64,000 bases of DNA, taken from assembly GCA_951406725.2 (NCBI GenBank), contig OX597824.1, positions 50,468,001 through 50,532,000 on the forward strand. The letters run 5' to 3'. The first letter of the stretch is position 1, and each line of letters opens with the position of its first letter. The notes under the pieces were generated by a model, which ran no database searches, was not told where the DNA came from, and saw nothing but the letters and a program-made list of their open reading frames with translations. The translations under genes and the position numbers were made by a program. This stretch comes from Octopus vulgaris (taxonomy: Eukaryota). Below are positions 3,009 through 52,969 of the stretch, one piece after another.

Positions 3009-3820
3009 TATACCTCAACTTTAGAATAAAAGAAAAAAATATATATACACACACAAATACTACACTCCATAGAATCCATTACTAATCAGCCCCTTCATAG
3101 CTATATTTACACCCATTCATATTCTCCCTTCTCTGTTTTTTTCTTCTTCTTCTTCATCATCATCGTTATCATCATCATCGGCGTCATCATCATCACCACC
3201 ATCATCACCACCATCTTCTCCTTCTCCTCCTTCTTCTTCTTCTTCTTCTTCTTCATCATCATCGTTATCATCATCATCGTCGTCATAGTCATCACCACCA
3301 TCACCATCATCTTCTCTTCTTCTTCTTCTTCTTCTTCTTCTTCTTCTTCTTCTTCTTCTCCACCCCCTACCCCTTAAGTTTGTCACTAATGTTTTTTAGT
3401 ATAACACCTACGCTAATTCTATAAACAATCCTGAATTGAACTGAGACTGCCAGCCGCCACTGACCATTCAAAATACGACCATCAGGGCACTCCCAGATTC
3501 TCCCACCCCCTTTCCTCACCAGCCTTCCCTCTACTACCCTACCAAGAACTCACAACTACCTCGAACACACAAGTGCAAACAAGGGAGTCAGAGAAAGGCA
3601 GAATGCCACCTAAATCTGAACACTACTATAGAAATATTCTTTTAAAAAAACTTTTCTTCTAATTTTTCTAAATTTAATTATTTAATCGTTACAGTTGAAA
3701 AGGTCTCAAAATGACCGAAACCGGTACTGAAATGTTCACTATAAAATTATTTTAGCATTTTCTATTTTTTACTTGTTTTTTCATATATATCAACTCGTGT
3801 GTTCCTTTTCACCCTTATAC
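3009..3820 (+). mobile_element. PLE 3' UTR / pseudo-LTR ending in (TA)n
   Basis: Follows the GIY-YIG stop and contains an HHR motif. 3630-3790 is homologous to 35840-35990. Confidence 0.7.
3689..3732 (+). ncRNA. Minimal type I hammerhead ribozyme (U3-A8 core variant)
   Basis: cag TTGAAAA ggtc-tcaaaat-gacc GAAA ccgg TA ctg: stems I and II pair, and stem III is palindromic as in PLE HHRs. Confidence 0.75.
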
Positions 3821-3859
3821 ATATATATATATATATATATATATATATATATATATATA

Positions 3860-4040
3860 TTAAATCCAAAAAGAACAAACATAAAAATCAACAACGCGAG
3901 GACGTGGTACATGCTATGTATTAGCAGACGCTCAGGAGAGGAAAGAAAGATGGTTTAGCATTTCGAGTAGACGCTCTTCTTCGGAAACAGAGGAAAGTCC
4001 AATAGAAGGGTAGACGGAGGAAGAAAATTGCCAACAATTC
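3860..4040 (-). mobile_element. Short repeat with degenerate minimal HHR (family related to 39150-39330 and 52860-53070)
   Basis: Minus strand reads gttt CCGAAGA a gag-cgtcta-ctc GAAA tgc TA aac. Downstream ctgagcg..taatac is shared with the other copies. Confidence 0.5.
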
Positions 4041-4419
4041 ATGTCTTTACACACACACACACACACACACGCACGCGTACGCGCACTCACACACTTCATT
4101 TTAAATTATTAATGATGTAGCATTTTCATCTTATTTAAAACCTAGTCGTTGGAATTCAGTTTCACAGAATGATGGCAATAGTCACGTGGTGTGTAAAAGA
4201 CCTGAGGTTTTGTAGAACAACACAGAAACTACGGCCATTTACCAAATTTACGCAAACTTTCATTGTTTCAAATTATAAGCGATGTGTAATTAAAACCCAT
4301 GTAAGCAAGTAAATACTAGTTTAATTGTTTGATGTACATACTGAAATGAACATATGCAGTCATAAACATGGAATAGAAATAAATAAATAAACAGCGTTCA
4401 AAAATGTCAGGTGAGTTGG

Positions 4420-5347
4420 TTAATAAGGGATGTATGAGCCTTTGTTTGAAATAAGTTGGAAAAGGCGCTGGTCCATGGAACATGCTAGTTTCTGGATCTC
4501 CTCTGATGTTATACCATGGGATACATCCACTACTGCCTGCCACAGTCCATCATTGCTCCTAAAGTGGCATCCTTTCTTTTCAACACGTTGCTTTAGAATA
4601 CCACACAAGTTTTCTGTTCGGTTTAAGTCGGTGAAACAGGCAGGCCACTTCATCTTCTGAGGTCCATAGAAGCTTAATTGTTGCAGATAATCTGTAGTTT
4701 TCTTCGTTGAGTGCGAGGGCTCATTATCTTGAATGAATATTATGGTGTCTTTTTAAACCAAGATTCAAGGTGCTCACTCAGAAAGGCTATATAAGTATCC
4801 TCAGTCATTTTAATACCGCCAAGTACTTTCCAAGGACCAACTATAATACCTCCAATAATACCAGCCCAAATCATGATGCCTTCTCCCCCTTGTTGGCGTT
4901 TCAAGTGTTGATGACGATCACATCTATTTACAACTTATCCCTTGCTCTAACCATCAGGTCCATCATGAGTAGTACGAGTGTCATCAGTAAACAAAACTGC
5001 TCATTTCAGAATGTATGTGTATTTTGTTTGAAGGGGGCCTTTTAACTGATGTCACTGGTTTACCGACCTTTTTCAGAAGACGACATCGGATAGTTCTGGA
5101 CACAGTTATTTTCGCCAATGCTCTTGAAAGCTCTACACTTTGGTTCTATACAGCTTCATGATTAATTCAAGACAGAGAACGTTGAGAAACAGCCCTCTAC
5201 AGACCTTTGTAGGCTCTCTTACGTATCTTCGTAGAAGCTGTAACAAATTTTTCATAGTTTTGATGTTTCTAATGTTGATTTACCTTTTGAAAGTTCTGAA
5301 GTAATAACAGATTTCTCTATAGCAGTTAGGTCACATTTACGACCCAT
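4420..5347 (-). pseudogene. Tc1-like DDE transposase, decayed
   Basis: MGRKCDLTAIEK start, FTDD.R, IQDNEPSHS, and KWPACFTDLNRTENLCGILKQRV (WP..SPDLNPIENLW-like). Frameshifted. Confidence 0.8.
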
Positions 5348-6050
5348 AATTACACGATATCAGACCACTAGTTAATAATTTACAGTGTATATCACTGTAT
5401 TACTGTCTCAACCAAACAATCGGATGTTGTTAAAAACCACTGGCCAGAAGGCACTTCCAATTCTTCCTTGATTGTGCCCTCCTCTTCTATCGTGGCCCAA
5501 ATCCTTTACCAACATTTGACTAAGGACATGCGTTGGTCGCCGGTCTCGTCAGACAGCCTACGTATGCGGGTGGATATGTTTGCATGTCTGATACTTGTGT
5601 ATTGTGTGTACTATACACACGTCCATCTATCTATCTATCTATCTATCTATCTATCTATCTATCTATCTATCTATCTATCTATCTATCTATCTATCTATCT
5701 ATCTATCTATCTATCTATCTATCTATCTGTCTGCCTGTCTGCATATCTGTTTAACTGTCACCCTCCCTCTTTCTCACACATATACAATTACGTACAAACA
5801 TACATACATGCATGCATATGTATATACGTACAAACATACATACATGCATGCATATGTATATACGTATATACATACAAATATATAAATTAAATACTTAGAT
5901 TGCAGGATAAATAGATAAATTGTATATGCATTTGTATACAGAATATATACATACTTGCTCTCACACACACGTATGTGTCTATATCTATATCTATCTCGAT
6001 ATGTACATATTAAATTTGATCAAATAAGAAAAGTGAAGCGAGATAATGAA

Positions 6051-50720: not shown

Positions 50721-51924
50721 TATGTGTGTGCGTGTGTGTGTGTGAGTGTGTGTGTGTGAGTGTGTGTGTGAGTGTGTGTGTTTGTGTGTGTGTATGTTCG
50801 CGCGCGCAAGTATCTATAGACATTTTTTGTAACATATTTATCACAGCCATCATATCGTAGATTCGTGTATTAAAGCGTATGTCGAAGGTGACTATAACAA
50901 GAGTTGGGAAGAGAAGGTTCGGCAAAAGATGGTGTTTATGTGTGGGTGGATAAGGGATAAAGCTGGTTATAGGAAGCAACCGATCAGTTCACTGGTCCAT
51001 CAACAGAACAAAACTCCGCATCACCCCTTATTGTTTAGCCTTTATTTGACAGCAATATTACCATGTCAGCTGAGACCCAACGAAAGAGAGAGAGAGAGAG
51101 AGAGAGAGAGAGAGAGAGAGAGGAGGAGGAAAGAGGGGGAGTGAGAGAGGAAGGGATGGAGAGAGAGAAAGGGAGAGGGGGAGGAGAATGAGGGAGAGAG
51201 AGACTGGTGTGGGTGGTCGTCGTCTTTTGTAAGAACAGGTTCAAGTCTAACGGGTGTGGTTATTAAATCTTCCGTGGGGTAGCGGGAAGAAGAGGGAAGT
51301 GGACTAGTGTTGGATGAGAGAAGAGGAGGATAAAGAGGCGGTAGGAAAAAAAAAATGAAAATAAAAAGAACTTTAAAAAAATAATAAATAAAGTATAATT
51401 ATGTATAATACAAATACAAAAAAACTTCTAAAACATCAACAAAATGGAGAAAAGCGTTGGATAAAGAAAATGTGATATAAAAGAATAAATATTAAAATTA
51501 TAAAGAGAAATAACAAAAAGAACACAAAGAAGGGTGCAAGATAATAAATAAAGAAGTAAATCTGGCAAACGGATAATGATGAAGTTAATTTGAGGAAGAG
51601 GCATTTCATCGTCCGAAATACTGAAATGACGTAAATGGCAGCGTATTAGGCTGCGTTTGTGGGCATGTTATTGGTCGGTGAATGACTTGTATGTGTGTAT
51701 GTGTGTATGTGTGTATGTGTGTGTGCATGTGCGTGTGTGTGTGTGTATGTGTGTGTGCGTGTGTGTATGTGCATGTATATATACACACGCACACAGATGG
51801 ATGCTAGATATATGAATATTAATGTGTCTGCTATGCACCACACAGGCACACACAAACTCATATATACGTGTGTGTGTGTGTCATATATATCATATATATA
51901 ATGTATATATATTCTTTTATTCTT

Positions 51925-52315
51925 TCTTTTACTTGTTTCAGTCATTTGACTGCGGCCATGCTGGAGCACCGCCTTTAGTCGAGCAAATCAACCCCAGGAC
52001 TTATTCTTTGTAAGCCTAGTACTTATTCTATCAGTCGCCTTTTACTGAACCGCTAAGTAACGGGGACGTAAACACACCAGCATCGGTTGTCACGTGATGT
52101 TGGAGGGATAAACACAGACACGCAACCATATACACACACATACATATATACGACGGGCTTCTTTCAGTTTCCGTCTACAAAATCCACTCACAAGGCTTTG
52201 GTTGGCCCGAGGCAATAGTAGAAGACACTTGCCTAAGGTGCCACGCAGTGGGACTGAACCCGGAACCATGTGGTTGGTAAGCAACCTACTTAGCACACAG
52301 CCACTCCTACGCCTA
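51925..52315 (-). mobile_element. SINE family A, complete copy
   Basis: Full head-to-tail match to 14135-14545. Confidence 0.85.
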
Positions 52316-52486
52316 TATGTATATATATATATACGCGAATACTATGAACTTTTTTACTCCCTTATCTTTACTCCCTCCCCTCACTTAGCGGTCATTCTAA
52401 TAGCTCTTTTGTCTTAATAACGGTTAATCATACAGTAATTTCCCTTTGTTTAACGGTCATTTTCATAGCATTTTTTCCGATGGCCG

Positions 52487-52547
52487 GATAACTGAAGAGT
52501 TAGCGGCGTGGGTTTCCACCCCGGCATCCGAAACTCGGAGTTTTATC
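52487..52547 (+). ncRNA. Type I hammerhead ribozyme, partly decayed
   Basis: gataa CTGAAGA g..gtgg-gttt-ccac..c GAAA ctcggag TT ttatc. Confidence 0.65.
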
Positions 52548-52927
52548 ATGACTACCGAATAATTGTCACATATTACATTTACAGATAAATTCCTCTATTT
52601 ACATAATATCGAGGTCTCTTTCATTCTTTTGTTGTCTTACTATTATTATCAATATATATATATAATGAGGGTGATAAATTGAATATTAATTTAATCAACA
52701 ACAATTTAAAACCAGTAGCCTAGCATATAGAAAAATCTGAAAACTCAGAAAAATTGTATTACATGCGTATAAGAAGGGATGACCACTAAGCACACCCACG
52801 TACATGCGCCTATAAGTATATAAGTATATAAGTATATATATATACTTATGACCAAACGCCATGATAGATCGTTAGCTACTACACACATTTTTTTCTCTCC
52901 TTGTTTCTCTCCTCATTTTTTTTCTGT

Positions 52928-52969
52928 GTATCTTTCTGTAGAAGAGCGTAGGCTCGAAACGTAAAATAC
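52928..52969 (+). ncRNA. Minimal HHR-like motif (A6U) in a short repeat at 52860-53070
   Basis: ttt CTGTAGA a gagc-gtag-gctc GAAA cg TA aaa. Confidence 0.5.

Follow-up and report, generated by a model that had tools for sequence, protein, structure and literature searches.

Penelope-like elements (PLEs) and retrozymes are the described systems closest to the repeats analyzed here, which lie in a microsatellite-rich stretch of 64,000 nucleotides of the Octopus vulgaris genome (contig OX597824.1; G000:C11:50468001-50532000), in the following called the window. PLE insertions have been described to carry an inverted 5'-truncated copy and a 30-40-bp tail at one end and to be biased towards (TA)n (Craig et al., PMC8557442). 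Their hammerhead ribozymes probably act as dimers (PMC4209133, PMC6765202). In vitro, a PLE protein which is predicted to form a dimer cleaves an AT-rich target on both strands and extends each of them (Frangieh et al., PMC11167929); two adjacent internal start sites define the tail and uncleaved RNA is used (PMC11167929). Non-LTR retrozymes were described in corals, mussels and the axolotl, and PLEs were named as a strong candidate for their mobilisation (Cervera and de la Pena 2020, PMC7229834), a proposal that is repeated in a curation guide (PMC8969392). For vertebrate retrozymes, which occur as dispersed monomers, a PLE origin was argued from co-occurrence and from homology to the pseudo-long terminal repeat (pLTR) as shown in Xenopus, with the mechanism left open (Li et al., preprint, 10.64898/2026.07.22.740005). 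Stubs of coding PLEs, inversions, retrozymes and their proposed dependence on PLEs are already known. In the literature searched, which excluded subscription journals and Repbase entries, we found no description of cephalopod retrozymes or of retrozyme insertions with the two-site head-to-head footprint of a PLE.

The window combines PLE insertion debris of a known kind with retrozyme-like families that are new. Five groups of hammerhead motifs (3689/35904, 13848, 38836, 52487 and 52928/3960; here named families A, F, B, I and H, respectively) are truncated ends of coding PLEs. Four further motifs (48087, 42000, 34095 and 49334; families C, D, G and J) belong to non-coding, circularly permuted direct-repeat units, an architecture that is usual for retrozymes. 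With a probability of roughly 0.8, the five coding families and the four non-coding units were inserted by a PLE enzyme with reverse transcriptase (RT) and GIY-YIG endonuclease (EN) activity. The fold-backs would then have formed anew at each insertion: the two cut strands of an AT-rich target would both serve as primers, at two neighbouring sites of an RNA that is uncleaved and probably circular or multimeric. A first-pass annotation of the window had proposed propagating fold-back families distinct from direct-repeat retrozymes. The existence of several multi-copy, PLE-tied families, some of them short and non-coding, was borne out: each of the ten families searched genome-wide is multi-copy with 550-3,896 first-look candidates, 40 of which were scored per family. 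The claim of a distinct inverted element class is refuted, and the inversion is an insertion footprint common to coding and non-coding families.

Among the non-coding families, family G (33895..34217) has a unit of 356 nt, with a minus-strand arm ending at the long 3' site and carrying the hammerhead (34095-34147) and a plus-strand arm ending at the short 3' site (34148-34212). Family D (41800..42221) has a unit of 485 nt and consists of a minus arm (41800-41967) and a plus arm (41967-42219) with the hammerhead at 42000-42086. In family C (47905..48290, unit ~483 nt) the long-site arm is on the minus strand (47907-48068) and the short-site arm with the hammerhead (48087-48144) is on the plus strand (48067-48290). 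Family J (49289..49529, plus strand) is a solo arm of a 353-nt unit with a decayed hammerhead (49333-49379). Upstream of the hammerhead, the sequence of all four families runs into the family's own tail. Direct-repeat periods of ~485, 356 and 353 nt were found within loci of D, G and J, respectively; C is circularly permuted and four of its arms exceed one unit. Direct repeats reached up to 2.5 units and the longest arm measured 1,207 nt. Circularity was also looked for in B, F, H, I and E and was not found.

The longest ATG open reading frames (ORFs) of the four units code for 33-77 aa and the GC content is 29-46%. Folding of the circular units compared to 40 dinucleotide shuffles resulted in z values of -9.6, -8.4, -4.7 and -4.9 for C, D, G and J. 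A search for Pol III boxes in the four units returned two weak A-box-like matches, both in G. When the family-D unit was compared to assembled contigs at 85% likeness, 78, 38 and 28 records were obtained from runs presumed, though not on record, to be RNA, and 901 from a run of unknown kind; no go-back joint was present, and the result is informative neither way. None of the runs listed for a family-D unit was on record as RNA. At one locus (L234:1279-1904) a family-D arm is fused at its 5' end to a decayed RT fragment of a PLE in sense orientation. In this single case, copying may have switched from the retrozyme to a PLE RNA.

To characterize the insertion footprint, 145 arms from 97 C, D, G and J loci chosen by similarity were mapped on the circular units. 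Left out were five duplicate loci, 14 of 30 D loci that had already been seen, and C matches confined to an internal TA/TG tract. Two end zones covering 11-14% of the unit contained 118 3' ends versus 17 5' ends, and 44 of the 145 arms were longer than one unit. The 41 head-to-head pairs comprised 28 of a long with a short site, two short with short, none long with long, and 11 other combinations. A weakness of this pooled set is that the zones were placed by eye on the very data being counted and that arms possessing one of the ends were more likely to be picked up by the queries. For this reason a second sample was taken with zones fixed beforehand. It consisted of 40 loci out of the 96 that matched an 18-nt pattern for stem III of G, namely 30 exact matches at new loci and 10 hand-picked ones with one mismatch. 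The G unit was present in 38/40. Within the preset 14% of the unit lay 43 of 66 3' ends (binomial p ~1e-21), and the 5' ends were spread round the circle from +16 to +348. All 21 head-to-head pairs differed in their junctions; ten joined long and short site, none joined like to like, and 11 were other combinations. One unit was exceeded by 13 of the 66 arms. No 5' pile-up at the hammerhead cut site was seen in the G sample (nearest +16); as each sampled locus had to contain stem III, which lies upstream of the cut, arms starting at the cut appear only as partners. Ten family-C junctions that had seemed similar all differed as well when read at base level, and short microhomologies were used. 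In 38/45 pairs the two arms were more alike than arms of other loci, which fits one template.

The same two-site arrangement was found in family A. The element at the start of the window had been taken for an intact-looking Penelope donor, a view that could not be upheld since it is a 5'-truncated head-to-head pair. Its long arm (1..1611, minus strand) carries a 784-aa RT and GIY-YIG frame of an endonuclease-bearing (EN+) PLE, extends to the left beyond the window to ~G000:C11:50466420 and ends at the short 3' site. The short arm (1612..3822, plus strand) is truncated in mid-RT, where its 467-aa frame begins, and is followed through the 3' untranslated region (UTR), the pLTR and a 30-nt tail into (TA)n. 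A full tandem of ~4.4-kb units is present at L365 (G000:C9:10675500-10685400); both window arms are 5'-truncated against it, the minus arm by ~1.2 kb, and outside microsatellites the two are one single-nucleotide difference apart. The protein matched RVT_1 (E 3.5e-8) and GIY-YIG (E 3.8e-4, just under the cut-off) and contains a Zn-finger-like CxxxxCxxC linker. The hammerhead (3689..3732, plus strand) has the core TTGAAAA with a U3-A8 pair, stem III CCGG and a predicted cut after 3726. An older relative (35579..35998, both strands) is a head-to-head pair of pLTR length with a decayed hammerhead at 35904+. Across 30 family-A loci, the 3' ends lay at two fixed sites (window 3818 and 3790), and inner junctions, visible in 15 of them, were different in every case. 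All eight pairs with both outer ends visible had site 3818 joined to site 3790. Arm lengths ranged from ~60 nt to more than 2 kb. Given these ends and junctions, small hairpins and the 2-kb pair are one continuum.

The full-length family-A element at L365 additionally carries a 411-aa ORF1. Its -1 overlap with the RT-EN frame is located at the heptamer T TTT TTA, which the window copy has as well (1525-1537 on the minus strand). Neither a strong hairpin downstream of the heptamer nor a Pfam match for ORF1 was found. Some PLEs have been described to possess an ORF1 plus a frameshift (PMC8557442). The junction zone of family A (3539-3571, in the older copy at 35774) is located ~160-190 nt upstream of the hammerhead cut and could mark the transcription start of the pLTR or a zone of microhomology.

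The hammerhead motifs themselves are real. A structure-aware scan in which core variants were allowed detected 7 complete type I folds in the window, compared to means of 0.75-1.15 (maximum 5) in 3 x 60 local shuffles and to 1 in the reversed sequence; at a stricter setting 3 folds were found versus 0.13-0.22 in shuffles. The cores of the complete folds start at 3695+, 13852+, 34141-, 42005+, 48093+, 49338+ and 52936+. The other motifs among the approximately ten listed in the first-pass annotation are decayed, partial or half copies of repeat families. At 52487 stem II is broken relative to its own family consensus, at 35904 CAAAA replaces GAAA in an older relative of 3689, and the decayed motif at 3960- is related to 52928 (score 75 versus a shuffle maximum of 43). 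The motif at 6170/6255 has core and stem II with a doubtful stem I, and 38836 and 16497 are half motifs. In an Rfam scan of the window, hammerhead families were absent from the best 150 of 276 matches, and those listed were microsatellite or hairpin matches to miRNA-type models.

The reported palindromy of stem III holds for the family consensuses, of which seven restore a perfect palindrome (CCGG, CAGCTG, CGGCCG, CTATGCATAG, CTGACGCGTCAG, CCGTACGG and CG); two families are near-palindromic only (TCCGGGA, CTCGGAG). In the D, G and J consensuses stem III is perfect, and it is partly decayed in the window's own G and J copies. The consensus hammerheads of C, D, G and J are intact as judged by inspection of the folds, and core, GAAA and UH were kept in 23/27, 22/24, 14/23 and 9/16 distinct copies, respectively. 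The coding families A, B, F, H and I likewise have a pLTR hammerhead with a palindromic stem III, which is near-palindromic in I. The core variant CTGTAGA of family H (52936-52942) is fixed in 13/13 matched copies and its activity is doubtful; a related motif with CTGATGA was found elsewhere in the genome. In family B, e.g. at L044:1395-1525, stem II contains an insert of ~90 nt.

Genome-wide (2.8 Gb), the pattern CTGANGA-N8-36-GAAAC gave 130,511 matches versus 38,506 for the backwards control, an excess of ~92,000. This is of the same order as the 126,247 hammerhead motifs of the axolotl (PMC7229834), the counting methods being different; for the giant squid genome 235 hammerhead matches have been listed (PMC6962438). 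The commonest family among the first 100 matches listed (G000:C1) has a stem II beginning with AGGCTGGAG and is not among the strict-core matches of the window. This family with the stem II start AGGCTGGAG may be the dominant hammerhead family of the genome.

Two other structural claims stood. Seven long inverted repeats were confirmed (1-601/1612-2212, 6050-6401, 33956-34212, 35579-35990, 38699-38959, 41801-41997 and 48000-48277), and the proximity to (TA)n was supported by 15 of 19 hand-placed arm 3' ends lying within 15 nt of a microsatellite, versus 14% of random positions. Fixed termini were found in part: the outer 3' ends lie at two fixed sites per family and the inner junctions vary by copy. 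By the measure of the first-pass annotation itself, for which unique breakpoints at every locus spoke against propagating families, the fold-back model fails, because inner breakpoints differ between copies (21/21 G pairs and 10/10 family-C junctions). A spread of the fold-backs as hairpin/ribozyme families, in which both the termini and the inner junction would be fixed, is largely refuted and very improbable. Loose junction clusters in families A (3539-3571, the element at 35579-35990 joining in the same zone), C and E would speak for it; against it, the junctions are not the same when read at base level, F, H and I loci mostly consist of one arm, and hairpin queries enrich for similar junctions. 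That the hairpins formed only once the element was in place, through fold-back of the DNA or through repair at (TA)n tracts, we consider scarcely credible. The flanks are indeed rich in microsatellites and junctions show microhomology, but copying one arm cannot yield these pairs, because the tail is present on one arm only and the arm lengths are unequal.

It is also improbable that C, D, G and J represent only the pLTRs left of coding PLEs, with ORFs beyond the stretches reached here and with circularity mimicked by repeated template jumps. Five other families did prove to be coding, one D arm adjoins the RT fragment at L234, and the searches scored 40 candidates each. However, at many loci the arms continue seamlessly, upstream of the hammerhead, into their own tail, 44/145 and 13/66 of them exceed one unit, and PLE protein matches in C, D, G and J loci are not contiguous, with the exception of L234. 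More serious, and still on the doubtful side, is the possibility that these four families are templated by linear transcripts reading through tandem arrays in the genome, which the PLE enzyme inserts with no covalent circle. Uncleaved RNA was the main substrate in vitro (PMC11167929), and existing insertions of 2-2.5 units could serve as donors. On the other hand, no long array was present among the 40 scored candidates of the full-unit D search, the units are strongly self-paired as circles, and circles are the form in which related retrozymes of mussels, corals and the axolotl accumulate (PMC7229834).

We return to insertion by a PLE enzyme that primes at two neighbouring RNA sites. Here, the PLE enzyme would cut both strands of an AT-rich target and each cut strand would prime at one of two adjacent start sites on the RNA. 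Copying would proceed from the start site towards the 5' side of the RNA and halt at variable points. The two cDNAs would then join by microhomology, giving a head-to-head pair in which the outer ends are unlike; otherwise one arm alone would remain. C, D, G and J encode nothing, and their arms can be longer than one full turn of the unit. Most likely, therefore, the enzyme works in trans on retrozyme RNA that is either circular or an uncleaved multimer, and it may go round the unit more than one time. The hammerhead would act earlier, releasing and circularising monomers, probably as dimers via the palindromic stem III, and would stay uncut during copying. The most specific form of the proposal is target-primed reverse transcription of the rolling-circle type, by which small ribozyme circles would be copied directly into chromosomes: a PLE RT dimer would use two fixed sites of one and the same circle to prime both strands of the target. 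We regard this form as evenly balanced.

Several observations weigh against insertion of this kind. In the G sample, 23/66 3' ends and an end of 11/21 pairs lay outside the preset zones, and the D pair of the window has an atypical end at +405. Family-A junctions (five pairs within 3539-3571) and family-C junctions cluster loosely, and gene conversion could account for the likeness of arms within pairs. Only 3/19 J flanks are microsatellite. The gap between the two 3' sites is ~60-160 nt in B, C, D, F, G and J, compared to the 30-40-nt tail in print. Arrays of more than 2.5 units were not seen. No match of C, D, G and J to the window's coding families was found among the coding pLTRs examined, and their matches within 30 loci of one coding family, a small sample, are separate insertions; their partner PLE enzyme is thus putative. 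Finally, circle and uncleaved multimer are indistinguishable by DNA sequence alone, and cleavage, circular RNA and trans-mobilisation are predictions.

For the remaining coding families, longer copies at other loci were followed upstream of the pLTR to PLE remnants. Coding remnants were found for H at L068 (88% to the window pLTR), for I at L271 and L192, and for F at L127 and L316. Family B showed weak RT and EN remnants (E ~1e-4 to 1e-6; L266, L268, L054) and a shared stretch of 3.4 kb; its 3' UTR is ~2.5 kb long. In the window, family F (13577..14110, plus strand) is a solo pLTR with a hammerhead at 13848-13899 (core CCGATGA, stem III CAGCTG). Family B (38538..38959, both strands) is a head-to-head pair of a coding PLE with a long 3' UTR, both arms being cut short inside stem II (half motif 38836+). 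Two more solo pLTRs of the plus strand are family I (52340..52652; hammerhead 52487-52547, stem II decayed) and family H, a coding PLE subfamily (52853..53062; hammerhead 52928-52969, core CTGTAGA, stem III CG). A decayed solo pLTR related to H lies at 3861..4050 on the minus strand. A fixed 5' terminus that could indicate a transcription start was rejected: H ends spread from -93 to -115 just above the query floor, and those of I and F scatter.

Two elements were not placed in either group. Family E (6050..6470) is a head-to-head pair with hammerhead-like cores at 6194- and 6255+ and a doubtful stem I; its arms are short and upstream the sequence turns low-complexity. At 16365..16640 a minus-strand half motif (~16497-16508) faces a plus-strand PLE ORF fragment (16547-16640). 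Compared to the family-A pLTR the half motif gave no significant match (score 45 versus a shuffle maximum of 51). The window also contains a SINE-like dispersed repeat with an internal microsatellite (14135-14523, 15305-15609, 41388-41752, 47043-47570 and 51926-52310), of which many copies exist at 70-85% identity. Decayed LINE-type RT copies were found at 27685-29495, 43271-45764 and 23128-24033, the first two being 83% alike, and further RT fragments at 24387-27301 and 58765-59239.

Compared to described systems, the coding families resemble EN+ PLEs in RT and C-terminal GIY-YIG, the CxxxxCxxC linker, partial tandems, the inverted 5'-truncated copy, the one-end tail and (TA)n targets (PMC8557442), and a pLTR hammerhead whose stem III is palindromic (PMC4209133). 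A, B and F show the partial tandem together with the inverted 5'-truncated copy and the one-end tail, and H and I are mostly single arms. The tails of B and F (~130-160 nt) are longer than the 30-40 nt described, and the likeness to the Neptune/Nematis type comes from the family-A linker only. With PAc, the Anolis Poseidon element, the families share a pair of internal sites, downstream of the hammerhead, at which the RT starts, as well as extension of both strands, an AT-rich target and uncleaved RNA (PMC11167929); in contrast to PAc, whose site was reported as non-homologous to the target, several start sites lie here in TA-rich RNA tracts. Microhomology priming with (TA)n may therefore be possible. 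C, D, G and J correspond to metazoan non-LTR retrozymes in that their units are non-coding direct repeats of 350-490 nt with a low GC content, a type I hammerhead and a strongly self-paired predicted circle, and in that PLEs co-occur. They differ in that the octopus families are dispersed insertions of at most 2.5 units, many of them in head-to-head arrangement, whose 3' ends lie at two fixed sites and whose 5' ends vary. Some units, known here from DNA, exceed the 170-400-nt RNAs reported in PMC7229834, and no pLTR homology to a coding partner was found in our small sample. Non-autonomous Chlamys elements such as MRC1 (PMC8557442) are non-coding and PLE-dependent with head-to-tail copies.

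The route of animal retrozymes back into the genome has been proposed and not shown, and the footprint described here gives it defined start sites, which in G were mapped to about +150 and +212 from the cut. Four non-coding families that share the PLE footprint beside coding PLEs, with arms passing more than once round the unit, provide insertion-level evidence for trans-mobilisation. In addition, the pairing of long with short sites constrains how the inverted copy and the tail of PLEs form. If the rolling-circle reading is true, the octopus genome with its excess of ~92,000 hammerhead cores would be a large fossil record of the process as well as a ready set of substrates for in vitro work.

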